18,798 nt of DNA from Ktedonobacteraceae bacterium. Lineage in GTDB: Bacteria > Chloroflexota > Ktedonobacteria > Ktedonobacterales > Ktedonobacteraceae. The stretch is taken from assembly GCA_036272735.1 (NCBI GenBank), contig DATAYF010000474.1:1-18798 (forward strand), written 5' to 3'. This document shows positions 2-18,798 of the stretch, in pieces. Each line of letters opens with the position of its first letter. The first letter of the stretch is position 1. The notes beneath the pieces are model-generated. The model was not told where the DNA came from. It was given only the letters and a program-made list of their open reading frames with translations, and searched no databases. A program made the position numbers and the translations under genes.

Positions 2-730
2 ATTTTTGCCCAGGTGAAGCAGTACAATGAGGAGGCTGAGACGGATGAGCAAATATTACGGCTCTCGATGGATGCGAAAGCGACGGTCAAGGTCGGTCCC
101 TTTGCGCAAGGAGGAAAGAGTCGCGTCCCAACCAAAGCTGCCGACCATGATTTTCAGCCGACGACCACGGTGACCCCTGTGGGCATTTTCTTGCCTGCCT
201 CCGATGAGGTCTTTTTCTACGGCGTTCTCTCGAAAGTGACCAGCGATTGCCTGGTAGACCGTTTGGTCGACTGGTGGGAGAGCGCCAAAGAGCGCTTTTC
301 CCACATCACGACCTTGCTTATCAACCCCGACAATGGTCCGGAGAGTCACAGTCGGCGCACGCAGTTCATGCAGCGCCTGGTGGAATTTGTCAAGCGGTAT
401 CACATCACTGTTCGTCTCGCGTATTATCCTCCCTATCACAGTAAATACAACCCGGTTGAACGCTGTTGGGACATTTTAGAACAGCACTGGAATGGTTCCT
501 TGCTTGATTCTGTGGACGCCGTGATCCAGTATGCCAGAACTATGACCTGGAAAGGGAAACATCCGGTGGTCGAATTGGTAACGACCGCCTATCAGACCGG
601 CGTAAAACTGACGAAGGAGGCAATGGACCTCGTAGAAACCCAACTTCAGCGGTTACCATCCCTGGAAAAGTGGTTCGTGGACATTTGGTATGTTCCCTGC
701 CAGGGAGTTGGGACAGTTAATAATTCTTGA
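2..730 (+). CDS. ISAzo13-family DDE transposase, 5'-truncated by the window edge (C-terminal ~243 aa present)
   Basis: The frame is open from the window edge, with no in-frame stop upstream of the ATG listed at 14, through to TGA at 728-730. C-terminal motifs ...LAYYPPYHSKYNPVERCWDILEQHWNG... and ...TWKGKHPVVELVTTAYQTGVKLTKEAMDLVE...EKWFVDIWYVP match, from memory, the DDE_Tnp_ISAZ013 family signature. Confidence 0.7.
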   Translation: MFAQVKQYNEEAETDEQILRLSMDAKATVKVGPFAQGGKSRVPTKAADHDFQPTTTVTPVGIFLPASDEVFFYGVLSKVTSDCLVDRLVDWWESAKERFSHITTLLINPDNGPESHSRRTQFMQRLVEFVKRYHITVRLAYYPPYHSKYNPVERCWDILEQHWNGSLLDSVDAVIQYARTMTWKGKHPVVELVTTAYQTGVKLTKEAMDLVETQLQRLPSLEKWFVDIWYVPCQGVGTVNNS

Positions 731-4023: not shown

Positions 4024-4698
4024 GTGAGCATATCGATTGATATGGCGCGTCGGATTGTCGAAGCGTGTAAGCAGCGCGCCCGCGATTTTCGCAGTCCGGT
4101 GAGCATTGCCGTAGTTGACGCCGGAGGGCACCTGGTCCTCTTTGAGCGTATGATGGCACCGTATGGTTGGATCACGAGCGATATTAGTATCGCCAAGGCC
4201 GCAACGGCCGTGATGTTCAACCAATCCACCGATGCAGTCGCCCAATGGGGGGCGAGTATCCCTGGCTTTGCATCGAGCCTGTCATCAATGACCAATGGCA
4301 AATTTGTCATGGCGGCTGGCGGTTGGCCTGTTCGGGTTGGTGGGGTAACGATTGGTGGCATCGGCATCAGCGGTGGCAATGCGCCGGGACGCGATGATGA
4401 AATTGCGCGCGCAGGCCTGGCCGCAATCGATGCTGCGCCTGCAACGCCGGTCCCGCCTACACATCAGCAGGCGTATACCGGAGCGTTGACGGCTCAGCCA
4501 GTCGCGTCGTATCCGCCTTATCCGCAGCCCTACCAACAACCCTACGCCGCGCCACAAACGCCACGACCAAAAGAAGAAGCCCCACGACCAGGCTATAGCG
4601 GAGCACCCTATACCAGAGAGCTTCTTCCCGGCCAGGATCACGCTAATAACGATGGTTCCTTACCGCCCCCCACGGAACATTCAGGAGATCAATCATGA
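4024..4698 (+). CDS. GlcG/HbpS-like (DUF336) putative heme/corrinoid-binding protein with a C-terminal Pro/Gln/Tyr-rich low-complexity tail
   Basis: GTG start 11 nt after AAGGAAGG. The first ~140 aa (...VSIAVVDAGGHLVLFERM...SIAKAATAVMFN...GGVTIGGIGISGG...) match the GlcG/HbpS fold signature. The tail YPPYPQPYQQPYAAPQTPRPKEE... is low complexity. Confidence 0.7.
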   Translation: MSISIDMARRIVEACKQRARDFRSPVSIAVVDAGGHLVLFERMMAPYGWITSDISIAKAATAVMFNQSTDAVAQWGASIPGFASSLSSMTNGKFVMAAGGWPVRVGGVTIGGIGISGGNAPGRDDEIARAGLAAIDAAPATPVPPTHQQAYTGALTAQPVASYPPYPQPYQQPYAAPQTPRPKEEAPRPGYSGAPYTRELLPGQDHANNDGSLPPPTEHSGDQS

Positions 4699-5468
4699 GC
4701 CAGGAACAAAGAGAAATTCGTAGACGAGCAAGACGTACAGCTAACGCCCAGCGTAACCGACCAACGCTCGTCACCGCCAAAGATAGCGAGCAGCAAACGT
4801 CGGCCTTCGAGTCCTACGAAACCACTACGGCAACCGTCGATCAGGAGCCAGAACAGCCTATAGAGGTAACAGAGGCCAAAGAGAAGCCGAAAGTTCGTCG
4901 TGGCTTCTTCTTGACCACTGGGAAGAAGGATGCAGCAGCAGGCGAGAAGGACGAGGTTGCGCAGGAGCGACTGGCCCGTGCGACGCGCGGCAAAAGTGAG
5001 CTGGAAGCTAAACAGGAGTCAGTCGCCAAAAAGCCAGCGGCGGCCCGTACGCCCACCAAAGGTGGATTTAAGACCCGCTACATCGTCGGCATGGCGCTCT
5101 ACCTGCTGTGTGCCAACTTTGTCGGCTCCTTCGAGGTACAGGGTCTGCGTTCGGCTGGCCTGGACAGGGTGTTGACCACATTCAACCTCTTCGGTGGCAA
5201 GATGGTTGTTAGCACATCGACGATAGCATTTATTGCTACGCTGGTCATCCTCCTGATCTTGTTGGCGAAGTTCGACCTGATCCCCAGCAGCCTCGGTATG
5301 GGCATGAATACAGCGCGGCCCGTGAGCAAGACTGGTAGCAGTGAGGCAACGCCCGGAGTGCCAGCGCCAAAGTTTACCCAGCCAGCGGTGCGCCAGGGCG
5401 TGGCAGGTGAACACGACGATCTCTATCAAGAGTATCGCTCGAATCAACGCCGCAGCAAGAAAAAATAA
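4695..5468 (+). CDS. Hypothetical protein: highly charged disordered N-terminal region (~135 aa) followed by 1-2 predicted transmembrane helices
   Basis: Start ATG overlaps the upstream stop (ATGA at 4695-4698), indicating translational coupling. A K/R/E-rich N-terminus is followed by hydrophobic segments IVGMALYLLCANFVG and STIAFIATLVILLILLA. No family is recognised. Confidence 0.55.
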   Translation: MSQEQREIRRRARRTANAQRNRPTLVTAKDSEQQTSAFESYETTTATVDQEPEQPIEVTEAKEKPKVRRGFFLTTGKKDAAAGEKDEVAQERLARATRGKSELEAKQESVAKKPAAARTPTKGGFKTRYIVGMALYLLCANFVGSFEVQGLRSAGLDRVLTTFNLFGGKMVVSTSTIAFIATLVILLILLAKFDLIPSSLGMGMNTARPVSKTGSSEATPGVPAPKFTQPAVRQGVAGEHDDLYQEYRSNQRRSKKK

Positions 5469-10034: not shown

Positions 10035-11747
10035 ATGCACTTCTCCCTTCCCGCAATGGGAAAACACCTCTGCAAAGTCGCTGGGATGGCGGTGTTTCTC
10101 AGCCTCTTGCTTACAGGAAGTTTCTTTCTACACGTGCCTATCTCTCAGGCCACGGGCCTGGCGCAACAGAGCCATCAGCAGGCCACCATTTATACCAGTG
10201 CCACCAAAGGTACGCTTGCCCCATTTGGTACTGCCGATCCTCGCCATCCTCCGGCCTCAGCAGCCGTGACCGGGGTTCCAAAGATCAAACATATTTCGAA
10301 GGGGGTGCGCCCCATTCCCAGCATCGCTCGGGCGTCCACCGCGCCTGGGCAGGCGCGTGCTTCCGGGCTTGCGCTGCACACTGGCCGGATCTTACAGAAT
10401 TTCAATGGAGTTAGCAGCCTGGATAGCGAGGTCACGAACTTTAATGCTGAATTCGAGCCGCCAGACCAGGGGCTCTGCGTTGGCAATGGCTTCGTCGTGG
10501 AAGCGGTGAACTCAGCTTTCACGATCTATCGGACCAATGGTACAGCGGTCTTGGGTCCGCTGAACGTCAATGTGCTTTTTGACGAAGGGCTCAAAGAGTT
10601 TACCAGCGATCCTCGCTGCTACTTCGATAAGTCAACCAACACCTGGGTCGCAATCATTCTCTACATTCGTAGTGATAATGCGGAGGCGCGCACCGACATT
10701 GCGGTCAATCACAGTGGTGATCCAACAACCCCCTGGACGGTCTATCATCTGGAGGCAACCGACGATGGGAGCGGTGGGATGCCAAACCACGCTGGATGTC
10801 CCTGTCTGGGAGATCAGCCGCTGCTGGGCCTTGACCAGGAGAACGTCTATATCAGCACTAACGAGTTTCCCATTGTCGCGAATGGCTTCAATGGGGCGCA
10901 GATCTATGCCATCTCGAAGCAGCAGCTTTTTGGTCTTTCGTCCCAGGTTCATTTTGTGCATTTTGACAACTTGAATATCGGGGGCGCAGTGGCTGCCTCA
11001 GTTCAGCCAGCAACTGCAAACGACAAAGCTGACGCGGGCTTCTTCATGAATTCGCTGGATCCCTTTGGTACCTCTGATAATCGTATCGGCATCTGGGCGC
11101 TAACCAACCGTCACGAGGTCAGCAAAGGAGGGGTTCCAATACTCTCCAGTATTGTCGTTACCTCGGAACTCTATGGCGTTCCGCCCCCAGCCATCCAGAA
11201 GGGAAACACCCGCAAGCTGGACGCAGGGGATGACCGCATGCAGCAGGTCCAATTTATCAATGGCGATCTCTGGGGCGCGTTGGATACAGTCATCACAATC
11301 CCGAATGATAGCGCGTCGCGGGCTGGCATTGCCTGGTTCCAGGTGCGTCCATCCATTCGCCATGAGCTGATCAGTGGACCGGAAATTGAGTATCAGGGTT
11401 ACGTTGCTTCGTCGGGGAACTATGTGCTCTACCCGGCGATCCAGGCGGGGCCGGATCATAGCGCGGCAATCGTCTTCACGTTCAGCGGAGCTAACAACTT
11501 CCCCAGCCCTGCCTACGCGGTAATGCAAGGTGGGATGCATGCTTTTGGCGCGATTACGCTAGCTGCTGATGGCACTGGGCCGTATGTGAATGGCACCCGT
11601 TGGGGCGACTATTCATACGCGACGCTTGATCCTGACCATAACCATTTCTGGCTTGCAACCGAGTATATTCCCCCGGTGAGCAGCCAGACAACGGATGGCG
11701 CTGCCAACTGGGGAACACGCGTCTTCGAGGTCGATGGGCACTCCTAG
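10035..11747 (+). CDS. Secreted hypothetical protein (570 aa) with an N-terminal signal peptide. No family recognised.
   Basis: GGAAGG RBS 8 nt upstream of the ATG. The N-terminus has a K-containing n-region followed by the hydrophobic stretch MAVFLSLLLTGSFFLHVPISQA. The rest shows no recognisable catalytic motifs. Alternative start at M17 (10083). Confidence 0.6.
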   Translation: MHFSLPAMGKHLCKVAGMAVFLSLLLTGSFFLHVPISQATGLAQQSHQQATIYTSATKGTLAPFGTADPRHPPASAAVTGVPKIKHISKGVRPIPSIARASTAPGQARASGLALHTGRILQNFNGVSSLDSEVTNFNAEFEPPDQGLCVGNGFVVEAVNSAFTIYRTNGTAVLGPLNVNVLFDEGLKEFTSDPRCYFDKSTNTWVAIILYIRSDNAEARTDIAVNHSGDPTTPWTVYHLEATDDGSGGMPNHAGCPCLGDQPLLGLDQENVYISTNEFPIVANGFNGAQIYAISKQQLFGLSSQVHFVHFDNLNIGGAVAASVQPATANDKADAGFFMNSLDPFGTSDNRIGIWALTNRHEVSKGGVPILSSIVVTSELYGVPPPAIQKGNTRKLDAGDDRMQQVQFINGDLWGALDTVITIPNDSASRAGIAWFQVRPSIRHELISGPEIEYQGYVASSGNYVLYPAIQAGPDHSAAIVFTFSGANNFPSPAYAVMQGGMHAFGAITLAADGTGPYVNGTRWGDYSYATLDPDHNHFWLATEYIPPVSSQTTDGAANWGTRVFEVDGHS

Positions 11748-11801: not shown

Positions 11802-12141
11802 GGAGCTTTTGAACCGCCTCCCCATAAGAATCTCTAGCAAAGTATGACTGAAAATGAATTTAAATGGTAAAATCTACCTTAGCAACAAAAATGTTGTATA
11901 GCTGTAATAGAAAGAAGTAAAAAAAGCACAGAACACGATGCTTTCTTTTAGCCCAAGAATAGAGCCTCACACCTGCCTCACCTTTTAGTCCTCAGTGGGT
12001 AGCGCCACGGTTCCTGCGGCAATCTGGACTACGCCTATCGACTCACCTATGGTTGTATGATATACTTGCCGTAATGTGGCAAGAGAAATCAGTATCGTCA
12101 GTGGGCAGAGCCCAAGCAAAGGCTTTGAGGTAGGTAACGCT

Positions 12142-12714
12142 ATGCCAGTAAGAATTATAATTGCAGATGACGAAGCCATACAGCGTATGGACTTAAAAGA
12201 TGTACTCATCAAACAGGGATATCTTGTGGTTGGAGAGGCTGGCGATGGCGTGAGTGCCATCAACCTGGCGCGTGAACTTCGACCAGACCTGGTCATTATG
12301 GACATTCGTATGCCCGATATGGACGGCATTGCCGCCGCCGAAACGTTGACAGAAGAAAAGCTTGCACCAGTGTTGTTGCTCACAGCCTTCGGGGATCAGC
12401 CATTAGTCGAACGTGCCAAAGAGGCCGGGGTCGTCAATTACATCGTGAAACCGCTGCGTGAGAGTGAAGTCACTCCCGCCATCGAAGTGGCCCTGGCGCG
12501 CTACAATGAGTTTCGTGGCCTTGAAGAGAAAAATCGTTCACTCACCGATCAGCTTGAGACGCGTAAGATTGTTGAGCGGGCGAAGGGTCTTATGATGCAA
12601 AAGCAAGGCTTATCCGAACAAGAGGCGTTCCGCAAAATCCAGAAGGCCAGCATGAACAATCGCAAATCTATGCGCGAAGTAGCAGAAGCTATCTTATTAA
12701 CCGACGAAATGTAG
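12142..12714 (+). CDS. Response regulator with a C-terminal ANTAR RNA-binding domain (PdtaR/AmiR/NasT-like)
   Basis: Preferred start is the ATG at 12142 with the GAGGTAGG RBS. The ORF-track start at 12076 is less likely. The receiver domain (RIIIADDEAIQRMDLKDVL...PDLVIMDIRMPDMDGI...LLLTAF...) and ANTAR motif (...LETRKIVERAKGLMMQKQGLSEQEAFRKIQKASMNNRKSMREVAEAIL) are close to mycobacterial PdtaR. Confidence 0.85.
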   Translation: MPVRIIIADDEAIQRMDLKDVLIKQGYLVVGEAGDGVSAINLARELRPDLVIMDIRMPDMDGIAAAETLTEEKLAPVLLLTAFGDQPLVERAKEAGVVNYIVKPLRESEVTPAIEVALARYNEFRGLEEKNRSLTDQLETRKIVERAKGLMMQKQGLSEQEAFRKIQKASMNNRKSMREVAEAILLTDEM

Positions 12715-12726
12715 GTGAAAACTGAC

Positions 12727-12757
12727 AGGATGCGGCAACGAGGCTTCATCCTTTTTT
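12727..12757 (+). terminator. Weak hairpin plus T-run between the ANTAR regulator gene and ricT. It could be a terminator or an ANTAR-controlled attenuator.
   Basis: AGGATG (12727-12732) pairs with CATCCT (12747-12752), separated by a 14-nt loop, then TTTTT (12753-12757). A TATAAT at 12766-12771 follows. Confidence 0.35.
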
Positions 12758-12792
12758 CATCTCAGTATAATGCCTAATAGATAGAGAAGTAT

Positions 12793-13806
12793 ATGTCACT
12801 GGCGACAAAGGATCTTGAGAAAACTATTCATATCGTCGGCATTCGTTTTCGTCCCGCCGGGCGCATCTACTACTTTGATCCTGTAGGGCAGATGTTTAAT
12901 AACGGCCAATATGTAATTGTGGAGACGGTGCGCGGCGTGGAGGCAGGGCGGGTGGTGATCGCGGCAAAACGGGTTGCGGAAAGCGAGCTGAGCGATCCCC
13001 TGAAGCCAGTTCTGCGCCTGGCGAGCGAAGACGAGCTGCGCACTATGCTCTCTTTTAAGAGCAAGGAAAAAGACGCGTTGGTCCGGTGCCATGAACGTAT
13101 TCAGTATCACCAGCTTCCGATGAAGCTGGTTGAGACCGAATATACGTTCGATGGAAGTCGTCTGACGTTCTATTTTACCGCGGAGGAACGGGTAGATTTT
13201 CGCGCCCTCGTGCGTGATCTTGCCGCGACCTTTCGTACTCGTATCGAATTGCGGCAGATAGGCGCTCGCGACCAGGCGAAGCTACAGGGCGGTATTGGCC
13301 CTTGTGGGAAGACGCTGTGTTGTAGCTCCTGGATCACCGACTTTGGTATCGTCTCTATAAAAATGGCGAAGGAGCAGGGACTGCCTCTCAATCCAACCAA
13401 GATTTCCGGTGTGTGTGGTCGCTTGATGTGCTGCCTCTCTTATGAGAATGAGAACTATATTCAGGCGAAGCGGCAAATGCCACAAATCGGCGCGTTCCTG
13501 AATACGCCCAGCGGATCAGGTAAAGTGGTGGCGGTGAACGTCCCCAAGAATTCGGTTGATGTCATATTGGAAAGTGGCGTCACCATCCAGGTGCCAGTCG
13601 AGGAAGAGCAGAACACGCAGTCCAGCAGTAGTTGTAATAGTTGTGGAAGCGGCACGAATTGTAGCTGCTCGAATGGTGGCCCCTGCACCTGTGGCGCGAA
13701 AAAAAGCCCCTCCACCACGAGCGCTCCGGCCAGCATCCCCAAAGGTGGTTGCTGTGTTTCGTGTAGTCTTAATAAGCAAAATCAGGCACCAAAAGCATCA
13801 AAATAA
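12793..13806 (+). CDS. ricT: PSP1-domain protein RicT (YaaT-like; regulatory iron-sulfur complex subunit / 'stage 0 sporulation protein') with an extra ~60-aa Cys-rich C-terminal tail
   Basis: There is block-wise near-identity to B. subtilis YaaT: VGIRF..AG.IYYFDP, VIVETVRGVE.G.VVIA, FYFTAEERVDFR.LV.DLA.TFRTRIELRQIG.RD.AK..GGIGPCG..LCCS, VSIKMAK.Q.L.LNPTKISG.CGRLMCCL.YEN. The C-terminal SSSSCNSCGSGTNCSCSNGGPCTCGAKK...GGCCVSCS is absent from YaaT. Confidence 0.9.
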   Translation: MSLATKDLEKTIHIVGIRFRPAGRIYYFDPVGQMFNNGQYVIVETVRGVEAGRVVIAAKRVAESELSDPLKPVLRLASEDELRTMLSFKSKEKDALVRCHERIQYHQLPMKLVETEYTFDGSRLTFYFTAEERVDFRALVRDLAATFRTRIELRQIGARDQAKLQGGIGPCGKTLCCSSWITDFGIVSIKMAKEQGLPLNPTKISGVCGRLMCCLSYENENYIQAKRQMPQIGAFLNTPSGSGKVVAVNVPKNSVDVILESGVTIQVPVEEEQNTQSSSSCNSCGSGTNCSCSNGGPCTCGAKKSPSTTSAPASIPKGGCCVSCSLNKQNQAPKASK

Positions 13807-13843
13807 CATTGTGAAGCTGAGATGAGAGGCAGGTGTGTGACGT

Positions 13844-15370
13844 ATGTCTTCAGATGGGAAGGACCCTGGTGCAATCTGGCAAGGACCCTCTAAACCGGAC
13901 TGGGGCCAGTCCGAACAACAAGCACAGATGGACCAGCAACTTGAATTCGCAGATCTCTCGCAGCAGCAGGCAGACGCTCCTCATGTTTTCTCGCTTATCG
14001 ACGACGATCTGGCGGACGAGGCGCTACCGCCGGACGCCAATTGGCAGGAGCGGCTCAAGCGCTACGCACGCCAGGCTATGCCGGTGTGGCTGCCCTTACT
14101 CCTCGGTGTACTGACCAGCATTTTTGTCATCCCTTTCATTATCCAGGGCCGCGCCAGCATCTCACTTGATAACCTCTGGTTGATCGTCACCGTCATTGTG
14201 GTAGTGACGCTGTCACAAATGGCCGCGCTGTTCTACACGAGCACCGCTACGAGCCAGGATGACGCCGGTACTGGCAATATTTTGCGAATCCCGGCCATCG
14301 TCGGGGGCATCCTCCTCTTTGTGCTCAGCGGCGTGTTCGCTCTTGCAGGCTCCACGGTAGGCTTGATTACCCTCGTTATCGTGATCGCACTCTTCGTCGT
14401 CTTATTCCGCTTATATGTTCACCCCGTGCCAGAAGGTTTCGTCGATATCGTTTACACCTTAGGCAAGTATAGTCGCACGCTCTACGCGGGGCCAAATGTG
14501 CTGCTGCCCTGGGAAAAGGTGGCGCATCATCTCAAAGTCAGCTCGATCCAGTGGTTGTGCCCCCTGCAACGGGTACAGCTTTCGCGTGCAGAGGATGTCC
14601 TGTTGCGTGCGACCATCTCGTATCGCCTGTTGCCGAGGGACGCCTACCTGGCGGTAACGCGAGTTGATCGCTGGGAAGAGGGCCTGCGCGAACTATTTAT
14701 TACCTGCGTGCAGACGATTGCGACGGCGTTTGCCCCTGAAGATTTTATCTCCTGGCCTGAAGGCTTACACACGCCACCTTCGGTCAATGAGAACGTTGAT
14801 AGTGTTGTGCGCCGAGATCGTATCAATAACTACTTGTATAACCAGATGAGCGATAAAGCGGCGCTATGGGGCATTATCGTGCAAGGGGTGGGTGTGCGCG
14901 ACATCATGCTCGCGCCGCACGACGCAGTTATTGATGCTGAAACGCTCTTTGCGTCTCCGGATCCCCCGGCTGCTCCACAACCACAGTCGCAAATGGCAAA
15001 CACGCGCCCACCGGCAGAACCTGCCGCCACTACTCTCCCGGAGAAAAACCTTAGTGGAGCGGGAGCGCCAAAGACGAATAACGTGCCCAAGGCCTCGGAG
15101 AACGCCATGGTGGTTGAAAGCTCCGCGCGCGCTATGCCGCAACAGCCAGGAATTGTGAATGAAGAGATTTTGTCAAAAGCCTACAAAGAGGTGCAGAATG
15201 GCAGAATTACAGACCCCCAAACTATCCGCGAGATAGCCGCCAGGTTCCAGGCCATCGCCGACGATCCCCAGGCTAGCCAAAAGGTCAACTTCGATGCGGA
15301 GCGAGGCGCGGCAAACCTGCAAGAACAAGCACGTAAGTACGAGGAGTCCGCAAGCAAGCAGCGTAAATAA
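13844..15370 (+). CDS. Membrane protein with an acidic N-terminal region, four predicted TM helices, a divergent SPFH/band-7 (stomatin/HflK/C/flotillin-like) domain, and a long P/Q/A-rich disordered C-terminus
   Basis: TM segments lie at about aa 70-190. The segment VPEGFVDIVYTLGKYSRTLYAGPNVLLPWEKV...SIQWLCPLQRVQLSRAEDVLLRATISYRLLPRDAYLAV matches the SPFH core pattern VPxG...GK..RTL.PG...P....V...Q.L.....TKD...V.VDAV..YRV.DP. It lies 37 nt after ricT. Confidence 0.65.
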   Translation: MSSDGKDPGAIWQGPSKPDWGQSEQQAQMDQQLEFADLSQQQADAPHVFSLIDDDLADEALPPDANWQERLKRYARQAMPVWLPLLLGVLTSIFVIPFIIQGRASISLDNLWLIVTVIVVVTLSQMAALFYTSTATSQDDAGTGNILRIPAIVGGILLFVLSGVFALAGSTVGLITLVIVIALFVVLFRLYVHPVPEGFVDIVYTLGKYSRTLYAGPNVLLPWEKVAHHLKVSSIQWLCPLQRVQLSRAEDVLLRATISYRLLPRDAYLAVTRVDRWEEGLRELFITCVQTIATAFAPEDFISWPEGLHTPPSVNENVDSVVRRDRINNYLYNQMSDKAALWGIIVQGVGVRDIMLAPHDAVIDAETLFASPDPPAAPQPQSQMANTRPPAEPAATTLPEKNLSGAGAPKTNNVPKASENAMVVESSARAMPQQPGIVNEEILSKAYKEVQNGRITDPQTIREIAARFQAIADDPQASQKVNFDAERGAANLQEQARKYEESASKQRK

Positions 15371-15615: not shown

Positions 15616-15945
15616 ATGAGAGCACCACGCGTAACAGCAGCTATTTTTGTGCTTTTGCTCATCGGGATCGTCTCATTAGGCGCAATTGGGCTGGTGGACT
15701 GGATTGGACCGGTAGAGGCCCACGGTAACACGGTTGAACACGCAAGAGGCACCATTCTACAGCAAAGCAATGGAACGAGCTTCACGTTACTGACCAAAAG
15801 TGGGAAGCAACTGACGTTCCAGTGTACCAGCAATTGTGACGTGCAACTTCAGCATATCAAACGGCACCAGACCGAACATGCGTTTACCGACGTTTATTAC
15901 GTGCCAGGTTCCAACCATACGCTGATTGCTGTAGATGTAGATTGA
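15616..15945 (+). CDS. Small (109 aa) secreted or membrane-anchored hypothetical protein
   Basis: GAGAGAGGG RBS 6 nt upstream. N-terminal signal/anchor MRAPRVTAAIFVLLLIGIVSLGAIGLV. A CTSNC Cys pair is present. No terminator before the next gene 58 nt downstream. Confidence 0.55.
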   Translation: MRAPRVTAAIFVLLLIGIVSLGAIGLVDWIGPVEAHGNTVEHARGTILQQSNGTSFTLLTKSGKQLTFQCTSNCDVQLQHIKRHQTEHAFTDVYYVPGSNHTLIAVDVD

Positions 15946-16003
15946 TCAGAAGGGTCCTAAGGCAACAGGAAAAATAGTAACTTAGAGAGTCAGGCGTCAA
16001 GGG

Positions 16004-17869
16004 ATGAGTAGTTGGCAAAATCAGACCAGAGAAGCAGCACCTATGCAGATAAGCAACGCCCCGTTGGATAGCGCGGACATCGTCATTGTTGGCAATGGCA
16101 TAGCAGGACTCACGGCAGCGTTAGAAGCGCGTGCCCTGGACCCTGAAAAGCGCATCGTCATCATTACGAGCCAGATCCATCCAACGATCAATACTCCTGC
16201 CCTCAAGCAGTTTGCTATTGCGAAACTGAGCAGGGAGCAATTGTTGGCGTATCCAGCGGGCACGGAGCGCGAACGGCGTATCCATGTTGTCAATGCACAT
16301 GTAGAGGAGATTCACGCGCGTAGCAAATATGTGGCTCTGCGTGGGAGTCGCGGCTTTGGTTATGGTTCACTACTTATCGCGACCGGCAGCCAGCCGCAGG
16401 GCATATCGGACCAGATACCAGGCCACGAGTTCGATGGTGTGCTAACGTTGCACTGCTTGCAGGAATATCTTGATTTACGCAGGCGACTAAGCGAGGTTAG
16501 TGAAGCCGTGGTCATTGGTGGGGGGGTACATGCCATCGAGACGGTCATGGGTCTGCGCCACTGGGGCATACGCGTACACTGGCTCATTCGCGGCTCAACC
16601 TTTATGCGCAACGTGTTGGACGAGTCGGCTTCGAGTATTATTTTGGAACACGTACGCCGTCAGGGGGTCGTAATCCACACGGAGACCGAGATCGTCGGCA
16701 TCGTAGGCCGGGTGGGGGGGGTTGCAGGCGTCATCACCAACCAGCAGCAGATGCTTCCTTGCCAGATTGTGCTGGCATGCACGGGTACCAAACCGGTCAC
16801 GACCCTGGCCGAGCATTGTAGCGTGCCCATTCAGCAAAAAAACGGGATTATCGTTGACGATAAGCTGCGCAGCAGTGTCCGCGATATTTATGCTGCTGGT
16901 GACGTTGCCGCCCTGCTTAATCCACAAACCGGTTGCTATGAAACTCGTGCCCAGTGGTACGCGGCAACCTTCCAGGGACGCATAGCGGGCGCGATGCTCG
17001 TGGGTGATAAAGAGCTGGCACGGCAACCATTCGGTGTGTCCTGGCATGCTACGCACCTGGGTGTGCTCTCTATGCTCACTGTTGGCGAACCACTCAACCA
17101 GAGCAACAAAATCGTTACGCTCACAGATACCAGTCAGGGTGGATACCGTCGTTTGGCAATCGCCAACGACCGTCTAGTTGGTTACCTCTCGCTTGGGCAC
17201 AAACAATGTGATAGCCTGGCGATTAAGCGCATCATCGACGAGGGGCATTCTATCCGGGGCATCACGAAGTCGCTCCTGAAGGGCAACTTTGACGCGCGGC
17301 GTTATCTTTCACAGATACGCTCGAAAGCAGCGGCCGGTATTATTAGTAGTGGGAAGCTGCCACCACTTGCGTCCAACCAACCCTCGGAGATAGAACTGCG
17401 TCCGGTAAGTGGGCATCTGTCCCATGGCTCAACGCGGCGCGATGTGCAATCGCAGCCTGGCATTATTCAGGAACCAGCGCGCGAAGTAGTCTATAACGAG
17501 GACGATATTAATCCTTTTACCGGCAATCTGCCAGCATTTGCACAGCCTATCACCGGCGAGTTTGCAATAGACAACAGTTTGATAGAAGATACCGGAGAGC
17601 AGGATAGTCTGGATGATATGCCGAGCCCCTTTACTGGCAATCTGCCATCATTCGACGAGACAGATACCGACCCGACCATCTCGTATACAGAGCAAGATGC
17701 CAATAGAGCGCGTAACCTCTGGGCGTATAGCGATGCTACGCCAGCCAGCCAGCAGAAAAAACCAGAAGAGATAGCGCCAGCGAGGAAGCAAGATATGCCG
17801 AGCAGTACGAAGCGCAACCTCTGGTCGTACACGCCCAGGCCGGATCAGAGGAAAAAGGGGGGACACTAA
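16004..17869 (+). CDS. FAD/NAD(P)-binding pyridine-nucleotide-disulfide-type oxidoreductase (ferredoxin/rubredoxin-reductase-like), ~430-aa catalytic part plus a ~190-aa disordered C-terminal tail carrying internal repeats
   Basis: Dinucleotide-binding motifs are present: DIVIVGNGIAGLTAALEA (FAD), VVIGGGVHAIETVMGL (NAD(P)), YAAGDVAA. The tail contains duplicated NPFTGNLPAF / SPFTGNLPSF and RNLWAYSDATP / RNLWSYTPRP. Start is 16004; alternative 16043. Confidence 0.8.
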   Translation: MSSWQNQTREAAPMQISNAPLDSADIVIVGNGIAGLTAALEARALDPEKRIVIITSQIHPTINTPALKQFAIAKLSREQLLAYPAGTERERRIHVVNAHVEEIHARSKYVALRGSRGFGYGSLLIATGSQPQGISDQIPGHEFDGVLTLHCLQEYLDLRRRLSEVSEAVVIGGGVHAIETVMGLRHWGIRVHWLIRGSTFMRNVLDESASSIILEHVRRQGVVIHTETEIVGIVGRVGGVAGVITNQQQMLPCQIVLACTGTKPVTTLAEHCSVPIQQKNGIIVDDKLRSSVRDIYAAGDVAALLNPQTGCYETRAQWYAATFQGRIAGAMLVGDKELARQPFGVSWHATHLGVLSMLTVGEPLNQSNKIVTLTDTSQGGYRRLAIANDRLVGYLSLGHKQCDSLAIKRIIDEGHSIRGITKSLLKGNFDARRYLSQIRSKAAAGIISSGKLPPLASNQPSEIELRPVSGHLSHGSTRRDVQSQPGIIQEPAREVVYNEDDINPFTGNLPAFAQPITGEFAIDNSLIEDTGEQDSLDDMPSPFTGNLPSFDETDTDPTISYTEQDANRARNLWAYSDATPASQQKKPEEIAPARKQDMPSSTKRNLWSYTPRPDQRKKGGH

Positions 17870-18181
17870 ATGCTCAAGATGTTCAAACCCGAACCAGCGC
17901 TGATGCATAGAACAGCGCCCCAGGTGATGCAGGAGATCCGCGCCTGCATTGGTTGCAATGAATGCTTGATTGCCTGTCCTGCGCTGGGTGAGCCAATCAC
18001 CATCGATGTGTTGAATCACCAGACGATCTCTGGCATGGTTTCGCCCTCGGTTGCACGTTTTGCGCAGGCGTGCTATCAATGCGGGGCGTGCGTCGATCCA
18101 TGCCCGGTCGGCCTGCACCGCGATGCCATGATGATGTGGCTGAAGGTGCGCATGCGGCGTGCAGAGCAGGGAGAAGAGTAG
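17870..18181 (+). CDS. 2[4Fe-4S] dicluster ferredoxin-like protein
   Basis: Two CxxCxxCxxxCP motifs: CIGCNECLIACP and CYQCGACVDPCP. The ATG immediately follows the TAA of the upstream reductase gene (TAAATG). Confidence 0.8.
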   Translation: MLKMFKPEPALMHRTAPQVMQEIRACIGCNECLIACPALGEPITIDVLNHQTISGMVSPSVARFAQACYQCGACVDPCPVGLHRDAMMMWLKVRMRRAEQGEE

Positions 18182-18182
18182 T

Positions 18183-18798
18183 ATGCAAATCGCGGAGGAA
18201 AAACGCGGCGGCCGTAAAAATAAAAGTATGATGGTCTGGGTCGTCACCGTTGGTATCATTCTCGTGGCGGTTGCCATTGAGTTCTGGTATAGCCGCGTCA
18301 GCAACGATCTTTCGCCTGATAGCCTGCTCGGTTTTGCTTTTGCCATCAGTGGAACCATTTTCCTGCTGCTGGCGGCAATCCGTTATAGTATGCATCGCCG
18401 CTCACGCACAAACGGCTCAGGGCTGCTCAACAAGTCGTTACACTGGCACATTGGCTTCGCCATGATCGCCTTCGCCCTGCTCCTATTGCACTCGTTAGGT
18501 AACTTCAATCCGCGTTCAGGCACGTATGCGCTCTTTGCCATGATTGCCATGGTCGTTAGTGGCGTGATTGGCAAGGCACTGGATAAGGTGATGCCGCGCC
18601 TGATTACCAGAGAGGTCAGTAAGGCGTTGACGGCGCAGGGGGATGATCGACTGGAAGAAATCACGCAGGAACTGCACACCATGGTTGAGTATAGTACGCA
18701 GGAACTGCAAGGTTTTTCCGTTGCACAAAAAAACGGCAGTTCCAAGCTCCCCACAAAACCTCAATCGAACGAGCCGCTATTACCATTGACGCAACGCG
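18183..18798 (+). CDS. Polytopic membrane protein (at least 4 TM helices, His residues flanking TM3), 3'-truncated by the window edge. Possible membrane redox partner of the reductase/ferredoxin pair.
   Basis: The frame is open from the ATG at 18183 (GGGAGAAG RBS, 1 nt after the ferredoxin stop) to the window end. It is not in the ORF track because it has no stop. Hydrophobic segments: VWVVTVGIILVAVAI, LLGFAFAISGTIFLLLAAI, HWHIGFAMIAFALLLLH, YALFAMIAMVVSGVIG. Confidence 0.6.
   Translation, partial: MQIAEEKRGGRKNKSMMVWVVTVGIILVAVAIEFWYSRVSNDLSPDSLLGFAFAISGTIFLLLAAIRYSMHRRSRTNGSGLLNKSLHWHIGFAMIAFALLLLHSLGNFNPRSGTYALFAMIAMVVSGVIGKALDKVMPRLITREVSKALTAQGDDRLEEITQELHTMVEYSTQELQGFSVAQKNGSSKLPTKPQSNEPLLPLTQR

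Follow-up and report, generated by a model that had tools for sequence, protein, structure and literature searches.

The window, the whole 18,798-nt stretch analysed here, is a Ktedonobacteraceae MAG contig that ends in four consecutive genes encoding a small OB-fold protein, a flavoprotein, a dicluster ferredoxin and a membrane protein (Table 1), all four located where the initial annotation had placed them. The stop/start coupling that it described is also present, as the flavoprotein TAA (17867-17869) abuts the ferredoxin ATG at 17870, and the ferredoxin TAG and the membrane protein ATG at 18183 lie just one base (18182) apart. Likewise, no terminators separate the genes: the three terminator-like sites detected all lie inside coding sequence and occur at chance level (3 found versus 2.9 expected). 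A zero gap between the flavoprotein stop and the ferredoxin start was observed in about 35 to 36 scanned loci, and across the 36 zero-gap loci the consensus AAGAAGGGA is found 5 to 13 nt upstream of the ferredoxin ATG/GTG. The conserved basic KKG(H/R) C terminus of the flavoprotein is probably a consequence of the Shine-Dalgarno-like run carried by the same codons.

Table 1. Positions of the genes and sequence features of the four-gene cluster in the window
Feature	Position (nt)	Strand	Basis or remark
Small subunit, 109 aa	15616-15945	+	ORF
Small subunit TM anchor, aa 3-36	15622-15723	+	N-terminal, modelled helix
Small subunit OB-fold domain, aa 41-109	within 15616-15945	+	Five-stranded, extracytoplasmic
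Small subunit C70-x3-C74-x5-H80-x2-R83-H84 segment	15823-15867	+	Invariant; beta3-helix-beta4 connection
Flavoprotein, 621 aa	16004-17869	+	ORF
Flavoprotein FAD/NAD(P)H two-dinucleotide-binding core, aa 25-325	16076-16978	+	Pyr_redox_2
Flavoprotein Rubredoxin_C-type C-terminal domain, aa 358-413	17075-17242	+	PF18267
Flavoprotein low-complexity tail, ~aa 445-621 (~190 aa)	17336-17866	+	Composition
Tail motif A copy 1, NPFTGNLPAF	17513-17538	+	Direct repeat
Tail motif A copy 2, SPFTGNLPSF	17627-17652	+	Direct repeat, 88% identity with copy 1 over 26 nt
Tail motif B copy 1, RNLWAYS	17710-17727	+	Direct repeat
Tail motif B copy 2, RNLWSYT, 16 residues from C terminus	17812-17829	+	18-nt repeat, 89% identical
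Purine-rich Shine-Dalgarno-like run GAGGAAAAAGGGGGGA, in last flavoprotein codons	17847-17864	+	Serves abutting ferredoxin start codon
Dicluster 2x[4Fe-4S] ferredoxin, 103 aa	17870-18181	+	ORF
Ferredoxin cluster motif 1, C26/C29/C32/C36	17945-17980	+	CxxCxxCxxxCP
Ferredoxin cluster motif 2, C68/C71/C74/C78	18071-18106	+	CxxCxxCxxxCP
Membrane subunit (putative di-haem b), N-terminal 205 of 324 aa	18183-18798 (window end)	+	ORF, cut by window end
TM1-TM4 and start of cytoplasmic insert	18183-18798	+	ORF
H89, membrane subunit TM3	18447-18449	+	Invariant
H103, membrane subunit TM3	18489-18491	+	Invariant

The proposed cluster proved to be syntenic in relatives. The order small protein–flavoprotein–ferredoxin–membrane protein is kept in 56 of the 62 Ktedonobacteria loci with enough upstream sequence, to which the count was restricted, and the ferredoxin gene adjoins in 76 of 78 Ktedonobacteria loci. 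The small gene is absent from a subclade of at least four loci, while in two loci (L045 and L085) the small protein and the membrane protein stay paired without the flavoprotein and ferredoxin. Directly upstream, 25 of 50 loci carry a GAF-type sensor kinase and a NarL-type regulator, which would fit redox- or stress-regulated expression.

The flavoprotein, annotated initially as NAD(P)H:ferredoxin reductase-like, matches Pyr_redox_2 (PF07992; 161 bits), PF00070 (54.7 bits) and Rubredoxin_C (PF18267; 27.0 bits), in support of that assignment. Its nearest solved proteins are CoA-disulfide reductase, NADH oxidase and rubredoxin/ferredoxin reductases (E values of 1e-23 to 1e-16), and it is of the ferredoxin/rubredoxin reductase type, lacking a redox-active cysteine. 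Every NCBIfam equivalog cut-off was missed by a wide margin, and a match to FAD_binding_2 was limited to the 30-residue Rossmann start. An alternative start codon, M14, was used by JGI, which gives a protein of 608 aa.

Both duplicated motifs reported for the flavoprotein tail, PFTGNLP(A/S)F and RNLW(A/S)Y(S/T), were found twice, and the direct DNA repeats underlying both are real; in addition, the exact 12-mer GATATGCCGAGC occurs at 17615 and 17792. Disorder-promoting residues make up 69% of the tail versus 53% of the core. Among 71 nonredundant flavoprotein homologues, the motif F[TS]GxLP is present in 51 (copy number across the set, 0 to 3) and LW[SA..]Y in 63, with at least one tail motif in 69 and a variable copy number. 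Motif B is always C-terminal to motif A (45/45 flavoproteins having both), and its last copy mostly lies 7 to 18 residues from the protein end. This conservation, fixed order and variable copy number are what would be expected of short linear motifs, as suggested previously. Furthermore, a six-frame search of 1 Mb of Ktedonobacteria sequence showed the motifs to be essentially confined to the flavoprotein.

The dicluster nature of the ferredoxin is confirmed by its two CxxCxxCxxxCP motifs and by above-threshold matches to Fer4_10 (34.5 bits), Fer4_9 and Fer4_7. It also aligns over its full length to Fer4_8. A conserved 31-residue insert separates the cluster motifs and a conserved amphipathic segment follows them at the C terminus; identity across the class Ktedonobacteria is 66 to 83%.

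The membrane protein, truncated by the window end, was completed to 324 aa from contig L001 (99.45% nucleotide identity over 7,069 nt). Its AlphaFold2 (AF2) model has five TM helices (pLDDT 73.8), in line with the at least four proposed earlier; beyond the window, the insert, which bears WDLAYISLEE and YRFVPD motifs, is followed by TM5 with H295 and H309. The histidines noted around TM3 (HWH...LLLLH) are present as H87, H89 and H103, of which H89 and H103 are invariant but H87 is not conserved. The suggested b-type haem ligation gains strength from the second invariant pair, H295/H309, which lies on the last TM helix and is likewise spaced i,i+14, and the sequence pattern suggests that the subunit binds two b haems. 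Indeed, the double hydrophobic H-x13-H pattern was found in 120/120 class members, 120/120 members of a sister family and 33/35 distant relatives, and two His pairs on parallel helices are kept from 18% to 100% identity. Helix positions (TM3 and TM5) and spacing match the bis-haem site of the NOX2 ferric reductase domain, formed by H101/H115 and H209/H222 (PMC3591440). By the positive-inside pattern, the N terminus, loop 2 and the insert between TM4 and TM5 are cytoplasmic, and the C terminus lies outside. The outward-facing loops, with D42-P45-D46-S47 and HSFGNFNPRSGT, are among the most conserved parts of the protein.

No Pfam family matched the window membrane protein above threshold, and a profile search of the PDB returned nothing, with no significant match to any solved cytochrome. 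It belongs to no well-known nonredox family, and the subthreshold matches that recurred among family members and distant relatives were only to families of two-haem cytochromes b, namely DUF4405, Ni_hydr_CYTB and Ferric_reduct. DUF4405 was matched weakly by 25 of 54 class members, and in a set of 44 sequences (41 distant relatives and three class members) weak matches were obtained to Ni_hydr_CYTB (15), DUF4405 (9) and Ferric_reduct (9). PF01292 is a precomputed assignment for several sister family members, and distant relatives also gave weak recurrent matches to cytochrome b561. Experimental work has demonstrated haem b binding by DUF4405 (PMC11334425).

Genes for these distant relatives adjoin ferredoxin and/or Pyr_redox_2 genes and multihaem c cytochromes. 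All six Anaerolineales-type loci combine ferredoxin, Pyr_redox_2 flavoprotein and membrane protein, and TM-anchored cytochromes with 8 to 42 CxxCH motifs flank five of these loci. Locus L093 encodes an FeS/cNMP-binding protein, the membrane protein and multihaem cytochromes, and at P0224 a multihaem cytochrome gene comes next. At L092, a multihaem c domain is fused to the C terminus of the membrane domain, after TM5, in agreement with an outside C terminus; the next gene encodes Pyr_redox_2, Rubredoxin_C and two Fer4 diclusters in one polypeptide.

The small protein is extracytoplasmic, as its description as secreted implied; however, it appears to be membrane-anchored rather than freely secreted, with a 24-residue hydrophobic stretch modelled as a helix (aa 3 to 36) and no conserved cleavage site. 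One face of this helix is conserved. Neither a CxxCH nor a twin-arginine motif occurs in its sequence. C70, C74, H80, R83 and H84 are invariant in 65 nonredundant sequences, and E87, T91, D92 and Y94 are at least 98% conserved; the invariant segment is a putative metal or redox site. The closest OB fold is that of the periplasmic Cu/Ag chaperone SilF, although the small protein is only 9% identical to the CusF/SilF Cu(I)/Ag(I) chaperones, does not match the CusF family in Pfam and, unlike them, is TM-anchored. The CusF ligand set (His, Met, Met and Trp) is missing, the mature domain of the window protein being devoid of Met and Trp, and C-x3-C...H-x3-H is instead found on the beta3-helix-beta4 segment. 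Cys2His2 residues spaced in this way might just as well make up a structural zinc site, and a structural disulfide between the two Cys is likewise conceivable. The small protein is likely the acceptor-side partner of the membrane protein, a side missing from the initial annotation.

Class-wide synteny and the invariant His pairs support the earlier idea of a membrane-associated electron transfer system. We favor the reading, at a probability of roughly 0.58, that the four genes encode one membrane-bound electron export complex. The genes are co-transcribed and most likely specify a chain from NAD(P)H through the two-haem membrane protein to the small surface protein. In the cytoplasm, the flavoprotein would oxidize NAD(P)H on FAD and pass electrons singly to both [4Fe-4S] clusters of the ferredoxin, its translationally coupled neighbour, which would dock at the cytoplasmic face of the five-TM protein. 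There, two b haems would be stacked across the membrane, the inner one held by H89 and H295 and the outer one by H103 and H309, with both His helices running from inside to outside. The outer haem would then reduce a redox or metal centre made by the invariant Cys2His2 of the TM-anchored CusF-like OB-fold protein, which would hand on to an extracellular acceptor either the electron itself or a metal ion in reduced form, for example Cu(I) or Fe(II). The PFTGxLP and xLWSY motifs may act as multivalent tethers keeping the reductase at the complex, probably by binding the cytoplasmic insert of the membrane subunit, which is specific to Ktedonobacteria. In the Anaerolineales versions, the flavoprotein tail is missing, and so are about 50 aa of that insert. 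We infer the outward direction of electron flow and a metal or redox function for the small protein. Speaking against the reading, the Ktedonobacteria, a class of soil bacteria, live aerobically and show no evident extracellular acceptor. No description of the module was found in the literature.

The same architecture of flavoprotein, dicluster FeS protein and membrane cytochrome b would suit an NAD(P)H:quinone oxidoreductase made of three subunits, working forwards or in reverse and built along the lines of succinate:quinone reductase or QmoABC, with menaquinone as the acceptor at one haem and the OB protein as an accessory or assembly subunit. The full-length alignment of the ferredoxin to Fer4_8 and its long insert fit such an enzyme, as long inserts between cluster motifs are typical of FeS subunits docking on membrane anchors. 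In addition, MsrQ-type relatives are reported to contain a quinone (PMC12525009). Still, we consider this unlikely: extracytoplasmic multihaem cytochromes keep recurring as genomic partners of the homologues, in one case as a fusion, which argues for delivery through the membrane, and the conserved outward loops are kept alongside an extracytoplasmic partner. Quinone reduction on the outer side would presumably also consume proton motive force needlessly, because the step from NAD(P)H to menaquinone is already downhill. Alternatively, the outer haem could reduce O2 to superoxide for signalling, development or defence, as in a split bacterial NADPH oxidase analogue whose small protein modulates or scavenges. 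The bis-His TM3/TM5 arrangement shared with NOX (PMC3591440), the aerobic, mycelial hosts and the upstream sensor kinase and regulator are compatible with this. However, an FNR-type dehydrogenase domain is lacking, relatives supply cytochromes c rather than O2, and a dedicated invariant Cys2His2 partner would be superfluous for O2 reduction, which makes this quite improbable.

We see little chance that the membrane protein is not a cytochrome, its histidines serving metal ion transport, for example, and the flavoprotein and ferredoxin merely sharing an operon while working in a soluble pathway. The missing match to solved cytochromes is compatible with this, but the only recurrent remote matches are to haem b families, and the two identically spaced His pairs on parallel helices persist from 18% to 100% identity. 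For a noncytochrome membrane protein, the adjacency of FeS, flavoprotein and cytochrome c genes and the L092 fusions would be an unlikely coincidence. Least probable, and hardly to be expected, is an inward chain, with a donor outside the cell oxidized by the OB-fold protein and its electrons brought in to ferredoxin and NAD(P)+. Wires of haem and FeS clusters can in principle run either way, and the multihaem cytochromes of Anaerolineales relatives could take up electrons, but transfer against the membrane potential to low-potential ferredoxin/NAD(P)+ would be unfavourable with no coupling site evident, and no oxidase-type catalytic domain lies outside the cell.

An electron export complex would share several traits with known systems. 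Weak recurrent Pfam matches to DUF4405 and Ferric_reduct link it to the ferric reductase domain superfamily (NOX, FRE, STEAP and MsrQ/YedZ) and to DUF4405/PepSY-like cytochromes, in which, as putatively here, TM3/TM5 His pairs hold an inner and an outer haem b (PMC3591440, PMC11334425). Cytoplasmic NAD(P)H and flavin as the source and an extracytoplasmic acceptor (a metal ion, O2, MsrP or a flavinylated protein in that superfamily) are further common features. In contrast, five TM helices are predicted for the membrane protein, against six in FRD/DUF4405 proteins, and its TM4 and TM5 are set apart by a cytoplasmic insert of 150 aa. Instead of an FNR-type domain or Fre, a stand-alone Pyr_redox_2 flavoprotein serves as the reductase, a 2x[4Fe-4S] ferredoxin that is likewise a protein of its own comes in between, and the outside partner is an OB-fold Cys2His2 protein. 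SdhABC (succinate:quinone reductase), QmoABC and HdrDE follow the same three-part plan of a flavoprotein in the cytoplasm, a dicluster FeS subunit whose cluster motifs are set apart by a long insert, and a di-haem b protein (putative here) in the membrane, yet the flavoprotein is neither SdhA- nor HdrA-like, the membrane subunit is unrelated by sequence and has no known quinone site, and relatives of the cluster supply extracytoplasmic cytochromes.

The flavoprotein core is homologous to the reductases of the TodA, BphA4 and putidaredoxin/rubredoxin reductase pairs (E values of 1e-16 to 1e-21 for solved members), sharing FAD and NAD(P)H motifs and a Rubredoxin_C domain with oxygenase system reductases; it also scores 142 bits against the model of PadH, one of the FAD-plus-polyferredoxin subunits of AOR and phenylglyoxylate dehydrogenase. 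Unlike oxygenase systems, the cluster has no oxygenase or other soluble terminal enzyme, its ferredoxin is 2x[4Fe-4S] rather than [2Fe-2S] or rubredoxin, and the flavoprotein has a 190-aa tail with linear motifs. Finally, the Anaerolineales-type module resembles the entry points of extracellular electron transfer (CymA, ImcH, CbcL and CbcBA, and Ndh2/EetAB/PplA of Listeria) in lying beside giant multihaem cytochromes, the expected place for a gate that passes electrons across the membrane. The gates known so far take their electrons from the quinol pool, whereas this module has its own NAD(P)H-flavoprotein and ferredoxin donors and, in Ktedonobacteria, is without any cytochrome c partner. A fifth gene, just beyond the window end, encodes a small membrane protein that may be part of the same complex.

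The four ORFs that the initial annotation had placed at positions 15616-18798 were recovered on the same strand exactly as described. The stop/start coupling was likewise reproduced, with the ferredoxin ATG abutting the flavoprotein stop codon and a single base between the ferredoxin stop codon and the next ATG, and in agreement with the earlier claim no terminator-like structure was found between the genes in a scan of the window. Promoter and terminator scans of the window gave results at chance level, and no Rfam match was obtained anywhere in it. The exact ferredoxin sequence is present on three further metagenome contigs. One of these carries L001, a homologous locus with 99.45% identity to the window over 7,069 nt, which reaches 3.2 kb farther and shows that the complete membrane protein is 324 aa long. 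In L001, the membrane gene is followed by the gene of a small membrane protein on the same strand and then by two GH64 gene fragments, the latter probably reflecting a frameshift or a pseudogene. The small downstream membrane protein, detected in 32 of 68 loci, might belong to the system as its fifth component.

Features of the window and of homologous loci from other genomes and metagenome contigs (coordinates of L loci are local to each)
Feature	Location	Strand and position	Basis or remarks
Small protein, 109 aa	window 15616-15945	same strand as rest of cluster	ORF
Flavoprotein, 621 aa	window 16004-17869	same strand as rest of cluster	ORF
Ferredoxin, 103 aa	window 17870-18181	same strand as rest of cluster	ORF
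Membrane protein, first 205 aa	window 18183-18798	same strand as rest of cluster	ORF
ANTAR response regulator, PSP1-domain protein, 508-aa Band_7/SPFH protein	window 12076-15370	same strand as cluster, directly upstream	
Partial DDE transposase, ISAzo13 family	window 14-730	near left window edge	Pfam
HbpS-like haem-degrading-protein gene	window 4024-4698		
257-aa ORF	window 4695-5468		no Pfam match
570-aa ORF	window 10035-11747		no Pfam match
126-aa small membrane protein	L001:7510-7890	same strand, just past window end	motif FPD...P.vGT.lGvPlDAGfDW...LLR.FP; no family match
GH64 glucanase gene as two overlapping ORFs	L001:8213-8910	downstream of cluster	
GAF-HisKA_3 sensor kinase and NarL-type (NarL/GerE) response regulator	e.g. 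L004:2819-4704, L005:3325-5222	same strand, directly upstream of cluster	
Convergent gene, ~287 aa	L004:9943-10749	(-), just downstream of cluster	faint FG-GAP match
Paralogous two-gene units, small OB gene beside membrane gene	L045:6440-7927, L085:4535-5865		
Ferredoxin/Pyr_redox_2/di-haem-b block	e.g. L087:4424-8519, L088:4399-8488		
Two adjacent fusion proteins	L092:6001-13770	beside Ser/Thr kinase and another FHA protein	

Ktedonobacteria are abundant in soil and geothermal settings, and few of their systems have been characterised. No annotated family matches the membrane protein, the small OB-fold protein or the motif-bearing flavoprotein tail, although the cluster is conserved throughout the class. 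A word-indexed protein search returned 342 membrane-protein homologues, every named one of them from Ktedonobacteria. Among the 80 loci scanned (one genome per species), all records named below phylum or class level were likewise Ktedonobacteria, including the genera Ktedonosporobacter, Tengunoibacter, Dictyobacter, Ktedonospora and Thermogemmatispora; the remainder were labelled only Chloroflexota, Chloroflexi or Chloroflexia. Synteny in relatives, which the initial annotation had proposed as a check, held: the four genes occur in order in 56 of the 62 loci with at least 3.4 kb of upstream sequence. A ferredoxin gene adjoins the membrane gene in 76 of 78 loci, and the flavoprotein stop codon meets the ferredoxin start with zero gap in 35 of the scanned loci. 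The sensor kinase and response regulator pair, which is absent from the window, precedes the cluster in half of the loci (25/50) and likely represents its dedicated regulators. L045 and L085 contain the small gene next to the membrane gene and neither a flavoprotein nor a ferredoxin gene, which marks these two genes as the core pair; L045 and a full cluster, L084, come from one MAG. The small gene is missing in a subclade of at least four Ktedonobacteria loci, in which no homologues of its product were found. The convergent gene with the faint FG-GAP match lies beside the cluster in 42 Ktedonobacteria loci and is absent from L001. A reductase and ferredoxin feeding an oxygenase was ruled out, since none of ~90 loci contains an oxygenase gene.

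The membrane protein, in both the window and L001, had no family match above Pfam or NCBIfam thresholds, and it fell below the gathering cut-offs of Ferric_reduct (PF01794), DUF4405 (PF14358) and Ni_hydr_CYTB (PF01292). In an alignment of 54 homologues (mean column identity, 49%), TM3 has two invariant histidines, H89 and H103, and the last TM helix has two more, H295 and H309, with the members of each pair spaced i,i+14. Four conserved histidines, two per parallel TM helix and 13-14 residues apart, are the pattern of two-haem cytochromes b. A further histidine to which the initial annotation had pointed, H87, is not conserved in this alignment. The AF2 model (pLDDT, 73.8) shows five TM helices, in agreement with hydropathy, and a 150-aa, partly disordered insert between TM4 and TM5 that contains the invariant motifs WDLAYISLEE, PQE and YRFVPDxKS. 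The predicted five helices fall short of the six-TM core of the FRD and DUF4405 families. By the distribution of positive charges, the N-terminus, loop 2 and the TM4-TM5 insert are assigned to the cytoplasmic side, in which case both His-bearing helices would run from inside to outside. An inner haem would be held by H89 and H295 and an outer haem by H103 and H309. This matches the arrangement described for ferric-reductase domains, in which NOX2 has H101 and H115 on TM3 and H209 and H222 on TM5 (PMC3591440). Residue 105 of the window's membrane protein, in the outer loop beside H103, is Leu (18495-18497), while Phe occupies this position in all 54 aligned homologues, 99%-identical strains included.

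An exhaustive profile search extended the membrane family to 1,319 representatives at E <= 1e-3. Two hydrophobic H-x13-H elements were present in 120 of 120 Ktedonobacteria homologues, in 120 of 120 members of a sister family of ~272 aa and in 33 of 35 distant relatives. Among the 54 Ktedonobacteria members, the commonest Pfam match was a subthreshold one to DUF4405 (25/54; best E, 0.0036). Subthreshold matches in a 44-sequence alignment of 41 distant relatives and three class members were to Ni_hydr_CYTB (15/44; 9e-6), DUF4405 (9/44; 3e-6) and Ferric_reduct (9/44; 2e-5). In both sets, the Pfam families matched most often are two-haem cytochrome b families, and for DUF4405 there is experimental proof of haem b binding (PMC11334425).

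The genomic context of the distant relatives is the most informative evidence. All six sister-family loci (L086 to L091), of which both taxonomically named ones are Anaerolineales, contain a tight block of ferredoxin, Pyr_redox_2 flavoprotein and membrane protein genes. Their flavoproteins are 30-34% identical to that of the window, and TM-anchored c-type cytochromes with 8-42 CxxCH motifs directly flank five of the six blocks. In L093, a locus with a more distant relative, a cNMP-binding FeS protein is encoded 5' of the membrane protein and two multihaem cytochromes 3' of it; its first gene was ruled out as a flavoprotein gene, and the product has a CcsA-like WGxxWGWD motif. A multihaem cytochrome also follows a GYF-fused relative. 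At L092, the first of two fusion proteins (1,072 aa) joins FHA, a di-haem-b domain and, after TM5, a multihaem c domain, while the second (1,508 aa) combines Pyr_redox_2, Rubredoxin_C, three FHA domains, a Fer4 dicluster, a cNMP-binding domain and a second Fer4 dicluster. Fusion to cytochrome c at the C-terminus confirms the C-out topology of the membrane protein, and the kinase and FHA neighbours hint at phospho-regulation of the electron chain.

The flavoprotein passed the Pfam cut-offs for PF07992 (161.2 bits; cut-off, 26.1), PF00070 (54.7; 22) and Rubredoxin_C (27.0; 25.9). These scores and its nucleotide-binding motifs, GxGxxG for FAD (VGNGIAG, aa 29-35), GxGxxA/G for NAD(P)H (IGGGVHA, aa 171-177) and the second FAD motif (A/T)xGD (YAAGDVA, aa 295-301), assign it to the ferredoxin/rubredoxin-reductase group of Pyr_redox_2 proteins. 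Among the solved proteins of the PDB, it comes closest in sequence to CoA-disulfide reductases, NADH oxidases, and rubredoxin and ferredoxin reductases. A CoA-disulfide reductase or NADH oxidase was rejected because the redox-active Cys is absent, the segment after the FAD motif (SQIHPTINTPALKQF) being Cys-free; the NCBIfam CoADR score was 126.9 against a cut-off of 578.8. Named ferredoxin-reductase equivalogs were also rejected on NCBIfam scores (score/cut-off: HcaD, 119/450; AndAa, 103/650; NorW, 117/392; PadH, 142/475). With no redox-active Cys and every equivalog cut-off missed, the protein is best described as a generic NAD(P)H:ferredoxin-type reductase. The ferredoxin is of the bacterial 2x[4Fe-4S] type, with CxxCxxCxxxCP motifs at C26/29/32/36 and C68/71/74/78 that are invariant among 71 homologues, and it exceeded the cut-offs of Fer4_10 (34.5; cut-off, 25.5), Fer4_9 (33; 27) and Fer4_7 (33.2; 27). 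A conserved 31-residue insert separates the two motifs, and Fer4_8 aligned over the full length.

NCBI annotates the exact sequence of the small protein, in a Ktedonobacteraceae MAG, as hypothetical. Pfam and NCBIfam scans gave nothing above threshold, and a PDB profile search with the family gave only TM-helix noise. Its N-terminus is a 24-residue hydrophobic stretch, modelled as a long helix, in which residues 5, 8, 12, 15 and 16 are invariant and form one helix face, suggesting specific packing within the membrane. Speculatively, this anchor could supply a sixth TM helix to the membrane protein in trans. A five-stranded OB barrel is predicted outside the cytoplasm, as in CusF/SilF; a metallochaperone of this kind was rejected, as the mature domain has neither Met nor Trp and the His-Met-Met and capping Trp ligands are absent. 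Residues C70, C74, H80, R83 and H84 do not vary across 65 sequences. The protein does not qualify as a c-type cytochrome (no CxxCH; C-x3-C is followed by D or R, not His) or as a Tat-exported FeS protein (no twin-arginine; Arg is single and separated, M-R-A-P-R). This favours a metal site filled after export, or a Cys pair that is either redox-active or structural, over haem c or an FeS cluster, and a structural zinc site formed by the Cys2His2 set is possible. In Ktedonobacteria, the protein takes the place held by multihaem cytochromes in the six sister-family loci, where no small-protein homologue was found by tblastn or HMM. It is a candidate for a new extracytoplasmic redox or metal-handling centre.

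The best-supported model, to which we assign a probability of about 0.58, is an outward electron wire ending at the OB-fold Cys2His2 protein. Electrons would pass from NAD(P)H via FAD, two [4Fe-4S] clusters, the inner haem b and the outer haem b to the OB-fold protein and on to a final acceptor. The data show the linkage of the genes, their domain identities, the invariant ligand patterns and the coupling or fusion of homologues to donor and acceptor redox proteins, while cofactor binding, the direction of flow and the roles of the small protein and the tail are inferred. NOX, FRE, STEAP and MsrQ likewise move electrons from NAD(P)H over a flavin into a two-haem wire across the membrane, and SQR and Qmo have the same layout of flavoprotein, FeS subunit and di-haem b subunit. 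The cluster is not a demonstrable member of any of these families; no Pfam threshold is reached, and five rather than six TM helices, another class of flavoprotein, a separate, interposed ferredoxin and the OB-fold partner set it apart. An NAD(P)H:quinone reductase resembling SQR or Qmo appears unlikely, and a superoxide generator built as a split NOX is improbable.

It is very unlikely that the membrane protein is something other than a cytochrome. A PDB profile search with the membrane family returned nothing and fold searches nothing specific, so its link to known cytochromes rests on the sequence pattern, weak profile matches and genomic context; the invariant histidine pairs and the families that those weak matches favour speak for haem b. 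Inward electron flow through the same components is the least probable alternative. Adjacency to redox genes recurs in several contexts, with fusions limited to one locus (L092), and together they argue that the membrane family takes electrons from a cytoplasmic flavoprotein/FeS module and passes them to extracytoplasmic redox proteins. If the outward wire is correct, cytoplasmic NAD(P)H would be wired directly to the cell surface through the flavoprotein, the ferredoxin and the di-haem b protein, bypassing the quinone pool, and the cluster would be a modular equivalent, in separate parts, of the NADPH oxidases and ferric reductases of eukaryotes.

The tail of the flavoprotein is richer in disorder-promoting residues than the core (69% and 53%, respectively) and in the window contains motif A, PFTGNLP(A/S)F, and motif B, RNLW(A/S)Y(S/T), twice each. 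Homologues carry 0-3 copies of motif A (F[TS]GxLP) and 0-2 of motif B (LW[SA]Y), with at least one motif in 69 of 71 nonredundant sequences. Motif A is N-terminal to B in 45 of 45 homologues, and the last copy of B is mostly found 7-18 residues before the C-terminal end. The initial annotation had suggested looking for the motifs in other proteins; in a six-frame search of ~1 Mb of Ktedonobacteria locus sequence, they were essentially confined to the flavoprotein. Outside the defined flavoprotein ORFs, a YidC-like ORF gave a single chance match, and all other matches were tails of missed or shortened flavoprotein genes. A basic C-terminus, KKG(H/R), was rejected as a third motif: it coincides with the purine-rich Shine-Dalgarno sequence of the abutting, coupled ferredoxin start, and its conservation probably reflects a nucleotide-level constraint. 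In the sister family, the tail is absent and the cytoplasmic insert of the membrane protein is shorter by ~50 aa, which weakly suggests that tail and insert interact. To our knowledge, tethering of a reductase by short linear motifs is rarely documented in bacterial respiratory-type complexes, and the tail motifs may offer a tractable case.

A broader reading is possible, though we regard it as less likely than not. The Ktedonobacteria cluster may be an aerobic, cytochrome-c-free branch of an unrecognised, widespread and quinone-independent export machine composed of an NAD(P)H flavoprotein, a dicluster ferredoxin and a five-TM di-haem cytochrome b. In Anaerolineales-type Chloroflexota and other lineages, giant multihaem cytochromes might receive their electrons for extracellular transfer through the same machine, as the missing gate in the cytoplasmic membrane. 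In Ktedonobacteria, it might instead drive a new type of surface redox protein, an OB fold with a TM anchor and a Cys2His2 centre that may contain copper, the reductase being tethered by short linear motifs of its disordered tail. No description of the module turned up in literature searches. In monoderm Chloroflexota, the sister-family block is a candidate for the gate through which electrons bound for extracellular transfer cross the cytoplasmic membrane, and its position beside the giant multihaem cytochromes of Anaerolineales makes this candidate testable; a paper on those cytochromes mentions no membrane component (PMC7399161).

Between the upstream Band_7 gene and the cluster lie 245 nt. 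The genes farther upstream appear unrelated (ANTAR response regulator, PSP1, DAHP synthase, GH2 mannosidase, HbpS-like protein, lipoate ligase, TGT and a transposase fragment), and the ANTAR, PSP1 and Band_7 genes are not conserved beside the cluster in other genera. Only positions 79-306 of the 308 in the profile are covered by the Pfam match of the ISAzo13 transposase, whose domain lacks its N-terminal part. The 257-aa ORF overlaps the stop of the HbpS-like haem-degrading-protein gene by 4 nt.
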